Assembly: GCA_037310415.1 (NCBI GenBank)
Contig: CP147780.1
Span: 1,856,001 to 1,920,000 of the forward strand
Source: Candidatus Atabeyarchaeum deiterrae
Lineage (GTDB): Archaea; Asgardarchaeota; Atabeyarchaeia; Atabeyarchaeales; Atabeyarchaeaceae
Reading direction: 5' to 3'
Length of the DNA stretch: 64,000 nucleotides
Below the pieces are notes generated by a model. It was not told the origin of the DNA. It ran no database searches and worked only from the letters and a program-made list of their open reading frames with translations. Shown piece by piece: positions 1,266 to 26,706 of the stretch (its first letter is position 1; the number at the start of each line of letters is the position of its first letter). A program made the position numbers and the translations under genes.

Positions 1266-1682
1266 CTAAATATCCTTGTTTGATAGCTTGTCGACCTCTA
1301 TACTCAACTGTTCAGCAATCTTTCGTGCAAGCGCCCTTCCGCCCGACCCAGGCTCCAACACCGAGACAGTTGAAGGCTTCAGGTCTTTGAACATCCGCAT
1401 GAACTCCGCCACAGTGAAGGCCTTGACTGTGGACGCACCAGCATTCTCAACAGAAACCTTCGCACACTTATTAGGGCAGCCGTCAATGGTTATGCATGGA
1501 TGCTTCCTAACGAGCGCGACAGCTTCTTTGTCCTTGAGCGCAACCATTGGCAAACAAGTCGTCGCTGTGCCTTCTCTCCTCATTTCATCTATTACGTGGT
1601 AGAGGGCCAGGCGGGTGATCGACCCTAGAACCTTACCGATGCCGCTACATGCTAAGACAACAACTTTGCCTTCCTCGCTCAA
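1266..1682 (-). CDS. DGC-domain putative zinc-binding protein
   Basis: LACSGIG...TCLP...ITIDGCPNKCAK signature. Confidence 0.85.
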   Translation of the reverse strand: MSEEGKVVVLACSGIGKVLGSITRLALYHVIDEMRREGTATTCLPMVALKDKEAVALVRKHPCITIDGCPNKCAKVSVENAGASTVKAFTVAEFMRMFKDLKPSTVSVLEPGSGGRALARKIAEQLSIEVDKLSNKDI

Positions 1683-1756
1683 ACTAGCTCAATCCCTCTT
1701 TTCACTTGCTCCGATGCATGCAAAGCACTCGGTTTACATTGGTTTTTCGTGTGTAA

Positions 1757-1825
1757 AAACATATTTATACATTTGAATATGTATCTTATGCGCGAAACAT
1801 ATTTATAAACTTGAATATGTATCTT
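1757..1825. promoter_or_regulatory. two tandem 31-bp palindromic boxes (probable repressor operator overlapping divergent promoters)
   Basis: 1757-1787 and 1795-1825 match at 29/31; each contains ACATATT...AATATGT and a TTTATA box. Confidence 0.7.
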
Positions 1826-1877
1826 CTGACTCATGGAACCGTAGACAACAACGGATGGATTTGGAGGGTTGCAGACC

Positions 1878-2147
1878 ATGAATAAGAAAGTCAAGGTCGA
1901 AGTGTTTGTTCCTACTGGTGCCTGCGCGTGTTCGTGGCAGAGCTTCATGGATAAAGTCTGGAGTGTTGTCCTGAAATTCAAGGACCAGGTTGACTTCCAA
2001 GTTAAACAAGCTTTCTCCGACGAAGCCTTGAAATATGGTCTGACATCAACCAAGGCCGTAGTCGTCAACGCGGACATCAAGATGACCGAGTACACGTTCG
2101 ACACACAAAAGCTCGAAGATGCCATCCGCAATGAAGTAGGAAAATAG
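1878..2147 (+). CDS. small thioredoxin-fold-like protein with CxC motif
   Basis: KVEVFVPTGACAC...A.KYGL...AVVVN; GGAGG SD upstream. Confidence 0.6.
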   Translation: MNKKVKVEVFVPTGACACSWQSFMDKVWSVVLKFKDQVDFQVKQAFSDEALKYGLTSTKAVVVNADIKMTEYTFDTQKLEDAIRNEVGK

Positions 2148-2353
2148 AGCCCATGAGCTCACCGAAAAAAGAGGATGCCAGAGAACTAGACTCAAATGCC
2201 GTCGAGTCTTTGGGTCTTTCGGTATCAAATACTCTAATGCATTTGGGTTGAGTGCTAAGACTCCTCTAGAATATAGACCGCGAGCAAGTTCAAGGAATTC
2301 CTTAGCAAACCTTATCCTTCCATTTGCAAAGATTACTGTGGGTGGTATGCGAA

Positions 2354-2809
2354 GTGAAGGTGAATCGAGAGTTATTCGCTCCTTGTGGCTTGTATTGCGG
2401 TGCATGCGGTATCCGCTACGCAAATAAGCACAGCGATGAGAAGCTGAGAGGCAAGCTTGCCGAATTCTACGGCATGAAAGTTGACTCGCTCAAATGCGAC
2501 GGCTGCCTTTCGAACAACAGAATGGCGTTCTGTCAGTCCTGCAAAATAAGGGACTGCGTCAATGCAAGAAAGATATCAGGTTGCCATGTATGCTCCGAGT
2601 TTCCATGTGACAACATTAAGAACTTTCCCTTCAAGGTGGCCATACCGTACATGATGAGGGCCACTTCCTACAGAAAGGGGAAGACTGATGAACAATGGGT
2701 CAAATGGGAACAAGAGAACTGGAAATGCAAAGCATGCGGGACACCCATATTCAGAGGCGCAAGAAGATGTCCCAAATGCAAGAGTGAAATAACACCTGTG
2801 ACCGAATGA
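2354..2809 (+). CDS. DUF3795-family Cys-rich protein with C-terminal zinc ribbon
   Basis: APCGLYCGAC...CDGC...CKIRDC...CHVCSEFPC; terminal CKACG..CPKC. Confidence 0.85.
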   Translation: MKVNRELFAPCGLYCGACGIRYANKHSDEKLRGKLAEFYGMKVDSLKCDGCLSNNRMAFCQSCKIRDCVNARKISGCHVCSEFPCDNIKNFPFKVAIPYMMRATSYRKGKTDEQWVKWEQENWKCKACGTPIFRGARRCPKCKSEITPVTE

Positions 2810-2972
2810 AGCGAGAACCTCTTTTGCATCACCACTTGGTTTTTGCAGAACCTGGTGCTGAATTTGCAGAAAATCTGTACTCAGACTCATTTTGCTCTCC
2901 ACCCATATCAAATCTCGTGCAATAGGGAGAGCCTCTGTTCAAGCCGAATCGGCAAGCCCGGCAGGAAGCGTG

Positions 2973-3368
2973 CTACCAAGACACAAGATTTAGCATCCTC
3001 CCAATCTCTTGGAAATGTCTATCGTTAGATACCAGAAGCTCATCGTTGTACGCACAAATCCCTGCTATCAAGATGTCAAGCTCCCCGATGATCCTTCCCT
3101 TACTCGCGAGCTCACCATATATTGTTGCAGATGCCTCTGATGACTTTAGGCTTACTGGAAGTATCGGTATGCTCGAAAGTAGATCTTCAACTAGTTTGAG
3201 ATTCTCATTGCGCCTTGATGAAATAATCGCTCCCTTCAATAATTCATAGGCGGAAATGGCTGAAGTCGCAAGGTGCTCGCCCTCACCCTCAAGCTTCTCT
3301 ATCGATGAAACAGCTCTGGGCTCCCCTCTAAGCAGAGCAACCAGCAGATCGGTGTCAAGGCATACCAA
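2973..3368 (-). CDS. vapC: VapC PIN-domain toxin
   Basis: LDTD, SAYEL, D.LIAG, LVSNDRHF PIN motifs; abuts antitoxin. Confidence 0.9.
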   Translation of the reverse strand: MVCLDTDLLVALLRGEPRAVSSIEKLEGEGEHLATSAISAYELLKGAIISSRRNENLKLVEDLLSSIPILPVSLKSSEASATIYGELASKGRIIGELDILIAGICAYNDELLVSNDRHFQEIGRMLNLVSW

Positions 3369-19693: not shown

Positions 19694-20404
19694 CTATTCA
19701 ATCCGCTTTCTTGGTCTCTTGCTTTCCCATCTTCTTGTTGCCCTTTGTGCTAGCAGCTGTGAGTGTTTTTCCCACTGCCCCTCGTCGCCTTTCTTTCTCC
19801 TCCAGATTCTAAACCGACATGTCTCTGCTCCGGCTGGAATTGTCCATTTGAACTCAAAGTCAAAGTTGGGGTCTATCTTCTCTCGAAGATATTTCAGAAT
19901 CCCTTCAACAAGATAACGCTGAACTCGGCAGTCGAAGGGCTTGTATGTGTCTTGATGAGGGCACCAGAGTATGTCGAATATTGCCTCTTCGGAGTTGAGG
20001 ATCTGGGGTCTTTCAATTGAACTCCAGGTAACAGTGTTCACCCATGTTGTCGCAAAACTCACCTTCTCTATGTCTGTCGTGCCTGCTGGAAACTTGGTGC
20101 CTTGAAACATCTGTTCTGCCACGTCGTGGCCCACCTTCGTCATCGCTTCGCTTGCAACTTTCTGCCCTTCAGACCCAAAGTTCTCTTCCACATCTTCCAT
20201 GATTTGTAGAACGGTCTTAGCCATGTAAGTTCCCCAGACAAGGAGTGTGGCAGGGTCAAAGTCTGGTCTTCCAGCTACCTCTCTTCTGAACGTCTCAATT
20301 GCTTTCGCGTAAGGCATATTGAACTTCGTTCCTTTCCAATTCCTCTCCTTTCGTTGACCCTTTGATAGAATTCCATCGGTTATCAAACTTGGCACCCGAC
20401 CCAT
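19694..20404 (-). CDS. hypothetical protein, ATC-hydrolase/V4R-like fold
   Basis: WCPH...DC.....VEG...TIPAGAETCRF pattern; true start may be near 20318. Confidence 0.55.
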   Translation of the reverse strand: MGRVPSLITDGILSKGQRKERNWKGTKFNMPYAKAIETFRREVAGRPDFDPATLLVWGTYMAKTVLQIMEDVEENFGSEGQKVASEAMTKVGHDVAEQMFQGTKFPAGTTDIEKVSFATTWVNTVTWSSIERPQILNSEEAIFDILWCPHQDTYKPFDCRVQRYLVEGILKYLREKIDPNFDFEFKWTIPAGAETCRFRIWRRKKGDEGQWEKHSQLLAQRATRRWESKRPRKRIE

Positions 20405-20460: not shown

Positions 20461-20979
20461 ATGAGGGCGAGGACGTTTAAGGTCATCGTTGTCGGGGAAG
20501 GTGGTGTGGGGAAGACTAGCCTCGTCAGAAGATACGTGGACAGGGTTTTTACTGAAGGCACGATGTCTACTATCGGAGTGGACTTGTCTTCCAAGACTAT
20601 ATTGAACGATGGGGTGGAAGAGATCCTTCAGATTTGGGATCTGGGGGGTCAACCTAGATTCAGGAATATTGCAGACCTTTTCTTCAAGGGGGCTAGTGGC
20701 GCCATAGCAGTGTTCGATGTCACAAGGAAAGAAACCCTATGCGAGTTGAGCGATTGGATTAAACATCTGCGCTTTGTGACTGGGAGCATACCCCTAGTTT
20801 TCGTTGGAAACAAGGTGGATCTGAGAACCTCAAGAGACCATGTCTCGTCAGGCGTCTCTAGGGAAGAAGCAATCAGATTTGCACAAGATTATAGTTCACC
20901 CTATGTTGAAGCCTCAGCTAGAAAAGGCTCTGGCGTGGAAGAGGCGTTCAAGGCTCTCGTAGTAAGACTGGGAGCTTAG
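20461..20979 (+). CDS. Rab-like small GTPase
   Basis: GEGGVGKTS, TIGVD, WDLGGQ, NKVD, ASAR. Confidence 0.95.
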   Translation: MRARTFKVIVVGEGGVGKTSLVRRYVDRVFTEGTMSTIGVDLSSKTILNDGVEEILQIWDLGGQPRFRNIADLFFKGASGAIAVFDVTRKETLCELSDWIKHLRFVTGSIPLVFVGNKVDLRTSRDHVSSGVSREEAIRFAQDYSSPYVEASARKGSGVEEAFKALVVRLGA

Positions 20980-21043: not shown

Positions 21044-21544
21044 GTGGTGGATGACTTGAACGAAACTATCAGGCAGTACAGGATCTCTGACCGTGCGAGT
21101 ATGATCAAATGCATGGAAGGGTTGCAGGATTATCTTATCTCGATCGATGAAATGAGGAGAGAGAGGCGGATGCCAGGTTATGGGGAGAGCTATACGGAGA
21201 GACTGCTTATGCGAATTCGAAGAGAGGATGGCATTGCATATGTCGCTGAGGATCAGGGCAGGATCATCGGTCTCATTGCAGGTGTGATACTTCGGCAATC
21301 AAAAGAGGACTTGCTTGAGTGTGTTCCATCAAAGGATGGTAGAATACTCGAGTTATTCGTTGATCCGCAGCATCGGGGACGAGAGGTCGGCAGGATGTTG
21401 ATGGAAAAGATCGAGAGATATTTCGTTGAGAAAAAATGCGACGCTGTACACGTCGAAGTCTTCGCACCAAACCTCGACGCCCGCGCTTTCTACCGAAGAG
21501 TCGGGTACGGGGATCGGGTTGTCGACATGATGAAGAAACCGTGA
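21044..21544 (+). CDS. GNAT-family N-acetyltransferase
   Basis: LFVDPQHRGREVG, N..A..FY.R.GY. Confidence 0.9.
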   Translation: MVDDLNETIRQYRISDRASMIKCMEGLQDYLISIDEMRRERRMPGYGESYTERLLMRIRREDGIAYVAEDQGRIIGLIAGVILRQSKEDLLECVPSKDGRILELFVDPQHRGREVGRMLMEKIERYFVEKKCDAVHVEVFAPNLDARAFYRRVGYGDRVVDMMKKP

Positions 21545-21785
21545 TAGGTCTCGGTGCGTGCGACAAAATTCGAATCTTCCATTTTCGAGACCAGCTGGAA
21601 AGCTCCACTCCTTCGGTGATGCGACATCCGCAACAATACTGAGAACCAGATGTGAAAGTAGACAAACTCTTTATTATGCCATACTATATAGGAGAGTTGT
21701 AGAACATACTAAGGAGGTCACATGCCTAGGTCCACAGTAGTCCTAGATAAAGTGTGAATAGGCAACTCGGGGGTCAGAGGCGTTC

Positions 21786-22037
21786 TTGCCTGAAAGAAAA
21801 CTTCACGACTTCCCTTGTCCAGTGTGCAAGAGTATTATCAGCGGGGTAGTGGTCAAGGAAGAAGACATACTGGGCGCGAAGCGCTCTCCGGCGCTTGTGC
21901 CAGCAAAGTGTCCCGGCAAACACGATGTGGCGTTGTATGTAGATAAGCAATTCAGAATAAGAGACGCGGAACCCCTGATTGATCCTAAGACTGCTGGAGG
22001 ATTGGACAAGGCTAGGAAGTGGATCTCTGAATTATGA
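21786..22037 (+). CDS. small putative zinc-binding protein
   Basis: CPVC...CPGKH; LYVDKQF.IR; GAGG SD before TTG. Confidence 0.7.
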   Translation: MPERKLHDFPCPVCKSIISGVVVKEEDILGAKRSPALVPAKCPGKHDVALYVDKQFRIRDAEPLIDPKTAGGLDKARKWISEL

Positions 22038-22093
22038 GAAGCCTGGGGCCTGACCGATAGACATATCGATGAGCTGTGGGTGGGAAACAGTTC

Positions 22094-22483
22094 ATGATAC
22101 ATAATCTCTATGTATTTGATGAGAATGGACTGCCTCTTCTAACGATAAAACTTGGCAGTATAGAGGCCGATGGTGCTCTATTGACAGGCTTCCTATCAGC
22201 AATGCAGTCTTTTTCGAAGAAGATCTCACAGGGAGATGTTGAAGAGATCAACTTCAAGGACTTTAACTTTCATATCAGATCGCTTGGATCATTGTATGTT
22301 GCTCTGGTGGCTGATAAGACCGATCACGACATTGCCTTCAGGCTGGCTGAGGTCTCGAGCATTGTTGAGAAGCACAAAGACAGCCTTTCCGATAATGCAG
22401 TGCAGACAGATATTAAGAATGCCATAACAAAGAAGGTTGGCATCAGAGACAGGGCGAAAGATTGGGCGAACATAGGTCTCTAG
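22094..22483 (+). CDS. longin-like domain protein
   Basis: MIHNLYVFDENG.PL...D..LL.GFL.A..SFS...EEI, then beta hairpin and helix: the longin topology seen in Asgard proteins. Confidence 0.75.
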   Translation: MIHNLYVFDENGLPLLTIKLGSIEADGALLTGFLSAMQSFSKKISQGDVEEINFKDFNFHIRSLGSLYVALVADKTDHDIAFRLAEVSSIVEKHKDSLSDNAVQTDIKNAITKKVGIRDRAKDWANIGL

Positions 22484-22510: not shown

Positions 22511-24016
22511 ATGGAAGCATTACAAGCAGCTTCATTTGTGGTGGCAATAGCCTTTCTGCTTGCTTTTATCTCTACCCTAAGGTTCTATAGAGGCAGAGTG
22601 ACAAAGACACGAGCCGAACAGAGATCTGCACTGAGGCCTACCCTCATCATTTCAGTTTCCTTTTTGATGGGAGCGATTGCCCTCTTCGTCAATTTCTACT
22701 CACTACTGATCTACCCCGCCTTCCCAACGACATTTCCTCCACCGCTCGTCGTGGGCGTCTATCCTTGGGAGTTTGCCACTGAGTTGCTGACCCCACTGTT
22801 TGGATTCCTTGTCATGGTCGCCGTCGTCACAGCTTTGAGACGACCTCGGCTGTATGCGCTACCTGTAGCCCTACTTGCGGTGTGTTACATTCTGTCGCTG
22901 CTCTCTCCTAAGCATCCGATGGATGATCCTTTCCTTACGTTCTGGCTTACTTCAAGCTCTCTCATGATTTTTCTGCCCATGCTTCTCTTCCTTTATCTCT
23001 GGGCAAGCACTAAGAGGCCGACTGCTTTTGGGATGTTCACTGGTCTTCTGCTCTACCAGGTCTTCTACACACTTTTCTCCACAACTGAATCTGAGTACGT
23101 TGGAGTACTGGGCTTCTATGCTCCAGCGGAGTATGAGACTCACATTCTGAGATATGGCGTCTTCTATCCTTTCATATTTGTTGGCATATTGCTTGCAGTT
23201 GCTGGTCTGTCCTTTGTCATTTGGAGTTTCTTCTACTCTGAGAAGAAGCTTGGCGGGGAACTCATTGGATACTCTCTGTCGACTGCGGTCATCGGAACAG
23301 AACTCTCAATAATTCTTCTATCACTGGGGACCTTCGCGATTGGGTACTCTATTACGCTCCTCATAACAGCGTTTGGAGCAGGTATCTTCATTCTTACAGG
23401 TTCATACTTATACGGTCGGTATAGAGAGAGTCGTCATACCCAGACATTGATGCTTTCGATTTTCTCGTATTTCGCAGGTTTGAGTTTCTTAATGTTCAAC
23501 ATTGGTCAGCACATCTACCTACTATATGGGCGTCTTGCCTGGTTTGACATAGTGACGCTAACGCTTGGATTGCTCACTGGTGGTTTCCTGTTCCTTGCAG
23601 CGATAACTGCCATGGAGCGAAGATCCCTAGTTTTACTCCCGCCTGCGGTGATAATCCCTCTATTCATTATGTCACTGCTATTCATGCCTTTACCTCCATG
23701 GCTTCTTGCTGTTATGGCTGGAGCAGCGCTGCTGATGACTGTTCTTCCGGGCGTGATGTTCTTTGTTCTTTGGAGAAGAATGAGTAAGGGAAAGGAGAAA
23801 GGGAGAGGTCGAGTCTTAGGAATATTTCTTGGATTCCTCTTTTTGATATTGTCTTCCCCGATCTTGATCCTGAGCTCCACGGTTCCTGATCCAATAGCGT
23901 TCGTAGCCTCAATTGTGGGAATAGCCGGTTCGATTCTAGCATTCGTTGGATCATTCCTCTTCTATCTAGGTGTCTCAGGTAGATTGGACAGGTGGTTCCA
24001 CGAACGGAGGCACTAG
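22511..24016 (+). CDS. about 15-TM membrane protein made of two homologous 7TM units
   Basis: Internal repeat: AVVTALRRPRLYALP/AAITAMERRSLVLLP, LMIFLPMLLFLYLW/LMTVLPGVMFFVLW, FGMFTG/LGIFLG. Confidence 0.75.
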   Translation: MEALQAASFVVAIAFLLAFISTLRFYRGRVTKTRAEQRSALRPTLIISVSFLMGAIALFVNFYSLLIYPAFPTTFPPPLVVGVYPWEFATELLTPLFGFLVMVAVVTALRRPRLYALPVALLAVCYILSLLSPKHPMDDPFLTFWLTSSSLMIFLPMLLFLYLWASTKRPTAFGMFTGLLLYQVFYTLFSTTESEYVGVLGFYAPAEYETHILRYGVFYPFIFVGILLAVAGLSFVIWSFFYSEKKLGGELIGYSLSTAVIGTELSIILLSLGTFAIGYSITLLITAFGAGIFILTGSYLYGRYRESRHTQTLMLSIFSYFAGLSFLMFNIGQHIYLLYGRLAWFDIVTLTLGLLTGGFLFLAAITAMERRSLVLLPPAVIIPLFIMSLLFMPLPPWLLAVMAGAALLMTVLPGVMFFVLWRRMSKGKEKGRGRVLGIFLGFLFLILSSPILILSSTVPDPIAFVASIVGIAGSILAFVGSFLFYLGVSGRLDRWFHERRH

Positions 24017-24022
24017 GACGTA

Positions 24023-24565
24023 ATGATCAAGAAGAACGTGTTTAAGATCATCATAGTTGGGGAAGGCGGCGTAGGCAAGACCAGCCTTGTCAAAAGACAC
24101 GTAGATGAATCTTTCAAAGAAGACATGAAGATGACCATAGGAGTAGACTTGAGCGTCAAGAGGATGAGAGTGAATGATGAGGAAAGAATGCTTCAGATCT
24201 GGGATCTGGGAGGGCAACCCCACTTCAAGAGCGTTGCTGACCTATACTTCAAAGGAGCACACGGCATGATGTCTGTCTTCGATGTCACCAGAAGGGCATC
24301 CATGGATAGACTAGTCGACTGGATTGACCGCGTCTATGCTACTGTCGGACAAATACCTATGGTAGTAGTCGGAAACAAGGTGGATTTGAGGAACCCTGGT
24401 GAAGGTATAGCAGGAGTGAGCAAAGAAGAAGGAAGAGAGTTTGCAACCAGATACCAGTCACCATATCTTGAGACCTCTGCCAAAGATGGCTCAGGAGTAG
24501 ATGCGGCATTCCAAGATCTCGTCAGCACGTTGTGCCGTGAGAGTCAGTCAATCAAGCCTCCTTAA
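24023..24565 (+). CDS. Rab-like small GTPase
   Basis: GEGGVGKTS, TIGVD, WDLGGQ, NKVD, TSAK; 6 bp after the membrane-protein gene. Confidence 0.95.
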   Translation: MIKKNVFKIIIVGEGGVGKTSLVKRHVDESFKEDMKMTIGVDLSVKRMRVNDEERMLQIWDLGGQPHFKSVADLYFKGAHGMMSVFDVTRRASMDRLVDWIDRVYATVGQIPMVVVGNKVDLRNPGEGIAGVSKEEGREFATRYQSPYLETSAKDGSGVDAAFQDLVSTLCRESQSIKPP

Positions 24566-24781: not shown

Positions 24782-26056
24782 ATGAATCCAACCAAGATAG
24801 ATGCGGGTCAACGACTCAAGAGCGTCTATCTTCTAGCATTTGCTAACGCGTTTTGGGCGGCTGGTTACGGGATGTATGGTTATATATTCCCGAATTTCCT
24901 CAAATCAGTAGGTGCGACTTCTGCCGATGTTGGTTTCGTGGCTACCATTCTGATCTTGCTTCAAGCTGTCACCTATATTCCTGGAGGCATCCTCAGTGAT
25001 GCAGGACACAGAAGAGCACTTATCATAGCATCATGGCTGCTGCCTGCTTTCGCACCCCTTTTCTTCATCGAAGCCGAGGCGACTCATTCATGGTTGAATA
25101 CGATTCCAGGGATCTTACTATTCGCCAGCGGTTGGATAGGTGCCCCAGCAGTTCAATCATATGTCAGCGAAGCGTCATCATTTGGAAAGAGAGGGCTTGC
25201 TTTTGGAATAATGGTGTCTTCTGGTCCTTTGGGACTTGTCCCATCTCCGCTAATCGGTGGTCTAATTTATGATCAATATGGGATTACGACTCTTTTCCAG
25301 GTAGCATTTGCTCTATACGTTATTTCCACTGCAATGGTCCTGGCGGTCCCGAGATTGAAGGGAGACTATGTCCACAGAGAGGCTCATCTAGTTGAGAAAC
25401 CCGCGAAACCGCTAGAACAAAAAAGCCGAAGCAATGCCTACGAAACAGGAGTTAAGAGTATCAAGGCCAAAAAAAGCCGTACAGGAAGCAACACGGGCAT
25501 TCTACTAAGGCGACTCGTCCCCATGGTCATTCTGAGTTGTCTCTTTCTTGGTTTGGTATACATCGGATCTTCCTTCGTCTCCCTATATCTGATGGAAGAA
25601 TATGGTTATCCTTACAGTCTGATACAGATCATGTTCGCTATTCAGAATCTGTCATCAGCCGTCGTAGTCACCCTACTCGGCAAACTAAGCGACAGATATC
25701 CACCAGCCAACAAATTAGCGCTGGTCGCGATACCTGCAATTGCACTGATCATGGGATACTCTATCCTGCTCCTAACATCAAACCCAGTAGTTCTATCCTT
25801 GGCTTTCGTGTTCATTGGTTCGGTTTCTGCCCTCTTCCCGATAGTCTTCAGCGTAGTGGGTGAGCTTAGCAAGGGGGGGCATGCTGCCCGAAGCTTTAGC
25901 ATAATCATGACTATCCTCTATGTAGCTGAGGCGTCGACGCCTTTCCTTGGGGGCGTCCTATACGGCATCTCGGCGCAGTTGCCTTTCGTCTTAATGCTAA
26001 GTTTAAGTCCTCTCGTGTTTGCATTAACGGTATACGCGCGCAGGAAAACACACTGA
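24782..26056 (+). CDS. MFS transporter (12 TM)
   Basis: GG.LSD...RR and GKLSDR loops; 6+6 TM with central hydrophilic loop. Confidence 0.88.
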   Translation: MNPTKIDAGQRLKSVYLLAFANAFWAAGYGMYGYIFPNFLKSVGATSADVGFVATILILLQAVTYIPGGILSDAGHRRALIIASWLLPAFAPLFFIEAEATHSWLNTIPGILLFASGWIGAPAVQSYVSEASSFGKRGLAFGIMVSSGPLGLVPSPLIGGLIYDQYGITTLFQVAFALYVISTAMVLAVPRLKGDYVHREAHLVEKPAKPLEQKSRSNAYETGVKSIKAKKSRTGSNTGILLRRLVPMVILSCLFLGLVYIGSSFVSLYLMEEYGYPYSLIQIMFAIQNLSSAVVVTLLGKLSDRYPPANKLALVAIPAIALIMGYSILLLTSNPVVLSLAFVFIGSVSALFPIVFSVVGELSKGGHAARSFSIIMTILYVAEASTPFLGGVLYGISAQLPFVLMLSLSPLVFALTVYARRKTH

Positions 26057-26166
26057 TGTTCAAAGTCAAGGTTGATTCTCATTTGCATATGAGCGCAATC
26101 GATCAGCCTGTCCTGCATTGCAGCTCAGGCTTTCCCTCAACTGTCGTGCGTAGGAGGAAGTCAATC

Positions 26167-26706
26167 GTGGGAAAAAGCGATGAATTGTCCATTAAGGGTT
26201 CCGTGATTCGCTTAGTAACTGGGGATATTACCGAACTCGATGTTGATGCAATAGTAAACGCGGCCAACTCGTACCTTAAGATGGGTGGGGGAGTTGCCGG
26301 TGCGATTCTTCGAAAGGGCGGAAGAAGGATCCAAGACGAATGCGACCGGATTGGTTACTGTCCTGTAGGGAGTGCGGTTATTACTACTGGGGGCGATCTC
26401 AGAGCCAAATACGTCATACATGCTGTTGGACCAAGAAATGGAGAAGGAGAGGAGGAAGACAAGCTAAGAAACGCTACATTGAGTAGTCTGAAATTAGCAG
26501 ACAAATATGATCTGAAGAGTACAGCATTCCCAGCGATCTCGACGGGAATATTCGGCTTCCCCGGAGACAGATGTGCAAGAGTAATGGTCCCGACGGTAAA
26601 GTCATACCTGCTGAACGAGAGAACAAGTCTGAAGCTAGTGGTCTTCTGTTTGTACGACAAGGACACTTCCCGAATCTTCAAAACTGAGCTGGAGAGATCA
26701 GTCTGA
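26167..26706 (+). CDS. macrodomain protein (ADP-ribose binding/hydrolase)
   Basis: GDIT, VNAAN..L..GGGVAGAI, VIHAVGP, AFPAISTGIFGFP; GGAGG SD before GTG 26167. Confidence 0.92.
   Translation: MGKSDELSIKGSVIRLVTGDITELDVDAIVNAANSYLKMGGGVAGAILRKGGRRIQDECDRIGYCPVGSAVITTGGDLRAKYVIHAVGPRNGEGEEEDKLRNATLSSLKLADKYDLKSTAFPAISTGIFGFPGDRCARVMVPTVKSYLLNERTSLKLVVFCLYDKDTSRIFKTELERSV

Follow-up and report, generated by a model that had tools for sequence, protein, structure and literature searches.

A duplicated seven-helix membrane protein encoded in a conserved cassette with a dedicated Rab-like GTPase in Asgard archaea: a candidate receptor or anchor platform

We analyzed a 64,000-nucleotide stretch of DNA (henceforth the window; coordinates are counted from its first letter) from the Asgard archaeon Candidatus Atabeyarchaeum deiterrae (contig CP147780.1, positions 1,856,001 to 1,920,000), which is part of a 2,756,679-bp single-contig genome. 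On its forward strand, an open reading frame (ORF) at 22511–24016, the sole long ORF at those coordinates, codes for a 501-aa protein with 15 predicted transmembrane (TM) helices in a 7+1+7 layout, hereafter the 2x7TM protein. Its closest named relative comes from ‘Atabeyarchaeia-1’, an Asgard archaeon. We found this gene to be the third in a cassette of four co-oriented genes, coding in order for a zinc-ribbon-like protein, a longin-like protein, the 2x7TM protein and a Rab-like small GTPase. The conserved linkage of these genes supports a shared function for all four. We propose, at somewhat better than even chances, that the 2x7TM protein serves a small-GTPase module as its platform in the membrane, in the capacity of either a receptor or an anchor, with the designation ‘receptor’ being suggested by its predicted fold, its topology and the gene linkage.

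Phyletic spread of the four-gene cassette

A HMMER scan of 1.84 billion representative proteins for the 2x7TM family yielded 31 hits, nearly all of them 430–500 aa in length, with the named ones coming from Thorarchaeota. Matches were recovered in 59 of 400 Asgard genomes, including all three from the family of the window, three of the 19 from a second family and 44 of the 89 from a third, thorarchaeal family. The 2x7TM proteins compared share from about 20% to 60% identity. All four gene families occur together in 33 of the 34 flanked loci, either in the order found in the window or in the order GTPase, zinc-ribbon, longin-like and 2x7TM. The second family has the cassette in two genomes, which brings the number of Asgard families carrying it to three. 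In the window, the four genes are separated by gaps of 56, 27 and 6 nt, the last being that between the 2x7TM gene and the start of the GTPase gene.

An earlier note, made from the letters of the window alone, had reasoned that the membrane protein has no fused kinase or output domain, so that the output would have to be the neighboring proteins. We found no Pfam domain in the 2x7TM protein, and the deep conservation of an operon in which its gene is accompanied by those for the longin-like and zinc-ribbon proteins and a dedicated Rab-like GTPase fits this idea for a putative receptor.

Two further observations concern the loci themselves. In an Atabeyarchaeia metagenome contig, the 2x7TM gene is present as two tandem copies (504 and 497 aa), flanked by the longin-like gene and the GTPase gene (L003:8001–11094). 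Some Thorarchaeia matches contain in-frame TAG codons, which at the three loci inspected turned out to be the normal stop codon, close to where the alignment ends.

The cassette GTPase and its paralogs

The cassette GTPase (180 aa; 24023–24565, forward strand) is readily recognized by the Pfam Ras profile (E = 3.5e-46), and its best solved relatives are a Thorarchaeota Rab (7ezb, 9e-35) followed by Rab18 and Rab1. Its G motifs are intact (GEGGVGKT, T38, WDLGGQ, NKVD and SAK) and it has no C-terminal lipidation motif. In three genomes with 16–24 Ras-like genes each, the cassette GTPase was the top match by 57–144 bits over the next paralog.

We then built a GTPase tree of 67 rows from the cassette GTPases, the full complement of 18 Ras-like proteins from the window's genome and, for three other genomes, the Ras-like proteins encoded at the 30 top-scoring loci, with the weaker paralogs of the latter genomes left out. 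Here, the cassette GTPases form a single clade (support 100/98) separate from 45 paralogs, indicating that the association of the GTPase with the membrane protein is older than the divergence of these lineages. The only member of this clade from outside a cassette is a second Rab-like GTPase of the window (20461–20979, forward strand; 54% identity to the cassette GTPase), which is coded 0.8 kb upstream of the cassette with a GNAT gene in between. By these sequence measures, the Rab-like GTPase is dedicated to the cassette.

Architecture and internal duplication of the 2x7TM protein

An AlphaFold2 (AF2) model of the 2x7TM protein built on 18 homologs was confident (mean pLDDT 85.4, pTM 0.79) and shows seven, one and again seven TM helices followed by a short C-terminal helix. 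The first bundle (residues 1–246; 22511–23248, forward strand), whose N-terminus is predicted to lie outside, has helices at residues 3–32, 35–67, 85–109, 112–131, 141–167, 170–199 and 205–241. It is followed by the linker helix TM8 (residues 250–270; 23258–23320, forward strand), and then by the second bundle (residues 277–489; 23339–23977, forward strand), with helices at residues 277–306, 310–339, 343–368, 376–390, 396–427, 432–454 and 461–489. The short, predicted cytoplasmic helix spans residues 491–500 (23981–24010, forward strand), and the protein ends just 12 residues past TM15. Hydropathy independently gave about 15 hydrophobic segments, in line with the number in the earlier note, which the model puts at 15.

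Self-alignment of residues 18–242 against approximately 292–485 scored 108–112 as opposed to 44 ± 7 (maximum 74) for composition-preserving shuffles (z about 9.6). All the motif pairs by which the earlier note had matched segments 3–6 to segments 11–14 fall inside this one local alignment. Further, when family profiles of the N-terminal and C-terminal halves (hereafter N-half and C-half) built from 30 sequences were compared, hhalign returned a probability of 97.85% (E = 6.6e-13, 150 columns). The two halves are thus, as judged from these alignments, homologous, and the repeat unit has the seven TM helices previously proposed, being neither a 6+6 nor an inverted arrangement. Both halves are present even in members with about 20% identity, which places the duplication before the split of the carrier lineages. 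Thus, the 2x7TM protein is predicted to be a covalent pseudo-dimer of homologous seven-helix bundles joined by TM8.

In addition to the duplicated versions, weaker matches in four further families proved to be single-unit proteins of 208–266 aa with seven hydrophobic segments each (L036:3253–4041, L037:3604–4404, L038:2083–2868, L039:3716–4486 and L040:806–1432). They display the three cytoplasmic motifs of one unit, namely a basic Y..R following TM1, [YW]xR..G[RK]xLG between TM5 and TM6, and G..D[RK] following TM7, and plausibly represent the unduplicated form. A word-indexed search for further single-unit relatives with the C-half profile recovered just fragments of the 2x7TM family. At L040, the single-unit gene adjoins a weak tandem longin-like gene (1550–2263, minus strand) and a gene for a Ras-family GTPase (2685–3257).

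Topology and conserved surface

The predicted inside loops of the 2x7TM protein contain 30 Lys and Arg residues, as against three in the outside loops and none in the TM segments; the corresponding means for 30 family members are 23.7 inside and 1.3 outside. By the positive-inside rule, both 7TM units are therefore predicted to have their N-termini outside and C-termini inside (N-out/C-in), which is the orientation of the G-protein-coupled receptors (GPCRs). The presence of TM8 between the units means that TM1 and TM9 run in the same direction and that the repeats are parallel, bearing out the proposal in the earlier note that a single linker helix would keep both units in the same orientation. 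The basic loops that it had pointed to after TM1/TM9 and TM5/TM13 are real. It was also right in seeing no retinal-binding Lys: no TM segment, including the TM7 of either unit, contains a Lys, so none is available for retinal. The charges in the TM cores are limited to a few Asp and Glu residues.

The motifs that persist across the family map to the cytoplasmic loops and the foot of TM8. Among these, E250 and Y254 (E-L-x-G-Y), which precede TM8 in the family alignment, are invariant. The best-conserved cytoplasmic motifs belong to the second bundle: Y-x-Y-G-R-[YWF]-[RK]-E following TM9, R-M-x-K..G-R-x-R between TM13 and TM14, and T/S-G-R-L-D-R following TM15. The helix formed by residues 491–500 might be positioned like helix 8 of the GPCRs. 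We had also considered the tail G-R-L-D-R-W of the 2x7TM protein as an echo of Trp-bearing tails in the partner proteins (see below); it was dropped as a family feature because the Thorarchaeia members lack this Trp, leaving it confined to Atabeyarchaeia. Within the membrane, three TM prolines (P377, P383 and P413) are invariant across the family, suggesting a constrained helix geometry. On the opposite face, the outer loop between TM4 and TM5 (S-P-K-H-P-L-D-D-P, residues 133–141) is near-invariant in the Atabeyarchaeia-type members and is not retained in Thorarchaeia; it is a candidate for a lineage-specific external site.

These patterns of conservation bear on the idea that the 2x7TM protein is a passive anchor, which merely recruits a GTPase module devoid of a lipid anchor and senses nothing, with its GPCR-like shape reflecting a common way of packing seven helices. 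Fifteen helices and a conserved duplication would be a costly anchor, and both the near-invariance of the TM4–TM5 outer loop within Atabeyarchaeia and the family-wide constraint on helix geometry suggested by the invariant prolines speak against it. We accordingly regard it as rather improbable.

Fold relationships of the seven-helix bundles

In Foldseek searches of the whole AF2 model and of the N-half, the top ranks were occupied by LYCHOS/GPR155 and GPCRs, all weak (E-values of at least 0.016), and neither the whole model nor the N-half had a match in the PDB at E ≤ 0.001. The GPCR-like fold instead became visible with VIA-align. With this tool, the best structural matches of the bundles were 7TM receptor domains rather than transporters, the nearest being the 7TM domains of adhesion/class B2 GPCRs (ADGRL3, ADGRV1 and CD97). 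The match is clear for the C-half. That of the N-half is at the tool's caution line for helical bundles, with other 7TM folds close behind (ACER3 10.8, KR2 rhodopsin 9.2 and Myomaker 9.1), and its fold assignment follows from its homology to the C-half. Each bundle is thus predicted to adopt a GPCR-type 7TM fold.

Sequence comparisons gave no counterpart to this likeness. The structural alignments to GPCRs have just 8–13% identity, and none of the 30 members examined matches a GPCR Pfam family (7tm_1/2/3, Frizzled and others) at E ≤ 0.1. The profiles of both halves searched against all solved chains found no GPCR or other relevant chain at E ≤ 10, the sole match being a Mrp antiporter subunit at E = 5.3. 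Neither the DRY nor the NPxxY class motif is seen in the family alignment. Thus, the 2x7TM protein resembles GPCRs solely in its predicted fold and topology: seven TM helices, the N-out/C-in orientation and the predicted helix packing. In contrast to the eukaryotic GPCRs, the protein has no detectable sequence similarity to them and no class motifs, its two bundles are fused in one chain via an extra helix, and the adjacent GTPase is a monomeric Rab-like version instead of a heterotrimeric Gα. It is conceivable that the single 7TM unit shares a genuine common ancestry with the 7TM domain of eukaryotic GPCRs and that the cassette is a prokaryotic survivor of receptor-driven nucleotide exchange, in which the bundles, alone or via the docked Trp tails of the longin-like and zinc-ribbon proteins, would act on the Rab-like GTPase much as GPCRs do on Gα. 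We consider such kinship, and with it a direct GPCR-like exchange role, a long shot; if true, the coupling of receptors to G proteins would be rooted before the eukaryotes.

Several known membrane protein classes were also considered and rejected. Microbial rhodopsins are ruled out by the lack of a Schiff-base Lys in TM7 and of a match to the Bac_rhodopsin profile. Bacterial 7TM receptors that are fused to output domains (7TMR-DISM, 7TMR-HD and HisKA_7TM) are not indicated by any Pfam match of the 2x7TM protein or 30 relatives, and the protein has no fused domain. The 7+7 inverted-repeat transporters of the UraA/SLC26/SLC4 type differ in that the intervening TM8 makes the repeats parallel here, and the 6+6 MFS proteins in that there are seven TM helices per repeat and no Pfam hit to MFS or another transporter family.

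Eukaryotic SWEETs are 3+1+3 parallel-repeat transporters. Such parallel repeats joined by a single linker helix lend some plausibility to a reversal of the proposed direction, wherein the 2x7TM protein is an effector (a transporter, a channel, or a lipid-handling or membrane-shaping protein) under the control of the Rab-like GTPase, with the longin-like and zinc-ribbon proteins in the role of guanine nucleotide exchange factor (GEF) or GTPase-activating protein (GAP). The gene linkage and co-descent fit this arrangement as well as they fit a receptor. LYCHOS/GPR155, at the top of the weak whole-model Foldseek matches, is a fusion of a transporter with a GPCR-like domain, and an MFS transporter gene lies 3' of the cassette in Atabeyarchaeia. 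However, the best structural matches are receptor domains, and the LYCHOS alignment spanning both halves is poor (root-mean-square deviation 12.3). The TM cores lack charge save for the few Asp and Glu residues, no transporter Pfam family was matched, and the MFS neighbor is absent from the Thorarchaeia loci. On balance, we hold an effector role to be unlikely, while granting it real weight.

At the other extreme, the linkage might carry no functional meaning, with an unrelated membrane protein, such as a GT-C-like enzyme or an exporter, simply being co-transcribed with a GTPase regulatory set. Neither the 2x7TM protein and its halves, nor 30 of its relatives, nor the single-unit versions gave anything in Pfam beyond noise-level matches to DUF6541, DUF6442 and DUF3522. 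The first of these, in the N-half (E = 0.001; 17.9 bits, below the cut-off of 29), and the automatic names of two fragments (‘O-antigen/teichoic acid export membrane protein’ and ‘Na+/proline symporter’) might point that way. However, these weak names come from fragments and find no support in the fold searches, the linkage persists over two gene orders, three Asgard families and divergence down to about 20% identity, and the GTPase lineage is tied to the cassette in the 67-row tree. We therefore judge a chance association to be very improbable.

Zinc-ribbon and longin-like partners

The first gene of the cassette (21786–22037, forward strand) codes for a zinc-ribbon-like protein of 83 aa with a TTG start. 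An alignment of 22 sequences shows an invariant C2CH site (C11, C14, C42 and H46) together with an acidic linker, and a C-terminal tail with invariant K75 and W79 (..DKARKWISEL). Database matches are confined to weak zinc-ribbon hits (Zn_ribbon_Brz and Trm112p-like). This gene adjoins the 2x7TM gene in 33 of the 34 flanked loci.

The second gene (22094–22483, forward strand) codes for a longin/roadblock-like protein of 129 aa. Its ORF opens at a GTG at 22076, with the ATG at 22094 being the start that agrees with the lengths of the homologs. All its profile matches are below threshold: Fuz_longin_1 (Fuz/Mon1/HPS1 longin 1) in seven of 23 members (best E 0.0016), Robl_LC7 in three of 23 (E of at least 0.051) and MAPKK1_Int (MP1). 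Among solved chains, its profile best matches TRAPP Bet5 (E = 0.085), and, as read by eye from the alignment, the order of secondary structure elements appears to be β-β-α-β-β-β-α. Its weak matches thus lead to the longin-based Rab GEFs (TRAPP Bet5/Trs23 and the tri-longin Mon1-Ccz1, Fuzzy and HPS1), with which it shares the association with a Rab-like GTPase. It differs from them in being a single 129-aa domain with a Trp-bearing tail and in matching below the curated thresholds.

Like the zinc-ribbon protein, the longin-like protein ends in a conserved tail, with an invariant W124 (..RDRAKDWANIGL). The family-wide consensus sequences are ..[DE]K[AT]x.W[MF][DE]x[FL] for the zinc-ribbon protein and ..A..W[AG].K[MV][LF] for the longin-like protein. 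Thus, throughout the family, both small proteins have an invariant Trp 5–6 residues before their C-terminal end.

A possible mechanism

If the 2x7TM protein is indeed a receptor or anchor platform, its basic, conserved cytoplasmic face would hold the longin-like and zinc-ribbon proteins at the membrane, possibly through their Trp-bearing C-terminal tails. The assembled platform might then set the nucleotide state or the location of the GTPase, with the longin-like protein acting on it. The 7TM bundles would supply either the signal input, in the case of a receptor, or the membrane address, in the case of an anchor. The physical contacts, the GEF or GAP activity and the ligand in this scheme are our inferences.

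Several points weigh against the receptor or platform proposal. Conserved gene order is silent on which protein acts on which, and no confident model of contact among the four proteins was obtained: a complex prediction with the four chains and alignments built here gave, in a run without controls, scores of 0.24 and 0.20 for the 2x7TM chain against a mark of 0.32, and speaks neither for nor against binding. The longin assignment of the second protein comes from below-threshold matches, no Foldseek E-value was better than 0.016, and in sequence the bundles resemble neither GPCRs nor any solved chain. Finally, four of the single-unit relatives, from four other genomes, have neither a GTPase gene nor a longin-like or zinc-ribbon gene within the 6.5–8 kb fetched around them.

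Neighborhood of the cassette

Downstream of the cassette in the window, after a gap of 216 nt, lie genes for an MFS transporter (24782–26056) and a Macro-domain protein (26056–26706). The same pair is found 3' of the cassette in two Atabeyarchaeia loci (L002 and L003) and is missing from the Thorarchaeia loci, indicating a lineage-specific neighborhood outside the core cassette. On the upstream side, the GNAT acetyltransferase gene (21044–21544, forward strand) separates the Rab-like paralog from the cassette; GNAT genes are also found near the cassette, at different positions, in two Thorarchaeia loci (L004 and L005). Divergent from the paralog is an ATC_hydrolase/V4R-like gene (19694–20404, reverse strand). 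An AT-rich stretch read by eye at 21668–21697 (tttattatg..actatatagg), about 90–115 nt upstream of the TTG start of the zinc-ribbon gene, is a possible archaeal TATA element of the four-gene operon.

Relationship to known systems and biological meaning

By its logic, the nearest known system is the actinobacterial conservon (AGPS, CvnA-D), in which a sensor kinase in the membrane is combined with a roadblock protein, a Ras-like GTPase and a DUF742 protein, and which is restricted to Actinomycetota (PMC13343842, PMC13621833). Like the cassette, it is a four-gene prokaryotic operon with a Ras-superfamily GTPase and a small protein of unclear fold, and its membrane sensor and roadblock/longin-superfamily protein would correspond in logic to the 2x7TM and longin-like proteins. 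The components nevertheless differ one by one. CvnA is histidine-kinase-like, whereas the 2x7TM protein has no kinase or ATPase domain. CvnB is an MglB-type roadblock protein, whereas the longin-like protein has the sub-threshold Robl_LC7 and Fuz_longin_1 matches noted above. CvnC is a DUF742 protein, whereas the small protein here is of the C2CH zinc-ribbon type, with none of the 22 members matching DUF742. CvnD, while likewise a Ras-superfamily GTPase in an operon, is not Rab-like. Pfam provided no link from the three non-GTPase genes of the cassette to the Cvn families. In view of the lack of a kinase and of DUF742, the Rab-like GTPase and the Asgard host, we do not count the cassette as a conservon and treat the resemblance as one of analogy rather than membership.

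Within Asgard archaea, Rab-like GTPases and longin/roadblock proteins are known signature proteins, and an operon of roadblock, Rab-like GTPase and DENN genes has been described (bioRxiv 10.1101/2020.10.19.343400; PMC10933270); unlike that operon, the present cassette has a membrane partner. In the cultured Asgard archaeon MK-D1, operons generally do not combine GTPase genes with those for roadblock or longin proteins, so that pairs are hard to establish (PMC10933270), whereas in the cassette the pairing of GTPase and regulator is explicit. Asgard ‘7TM proteins’, as a signature family cataloged before, and GPCR-like structural clusters are listed in a preprint of October 2026 (bioRxiv 10.64898/2026.10.28.762692), the available portion of whose text describes no tandem 7+1+7 fusion and no operon. 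Likewise, our full-text literature search found no description of the 7+1+7 fusion family or of the four-gene cassette.

The Ras-superfamily GTPases of Asgard genomes number in the dozens, alongside many longin and roadblock proteins. The cassette bears on how these regulators are matched to individual GTPases and on the way in which a GTPase devoid of a lipid anchor gets to a membrane. It offers a full set of candidates, consisting of one dedicated GTPase, two small partner proteins and a membrane protein, which is small enough for expression and reconstitution. The predicted GPCR-type fold raises the question of whether the wiring of 7TM proteins to GTPases predates the eukaryotes. Even if the likeness in fold were to be a case of convergent packing, the cassette would still be a new prokaryotic small-GTPase system paralleling the conservon. 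It points to a candidate partner in the membrane, amenable to testing, for a small-GTPase switch in organisms closely related to the eukaryotes.
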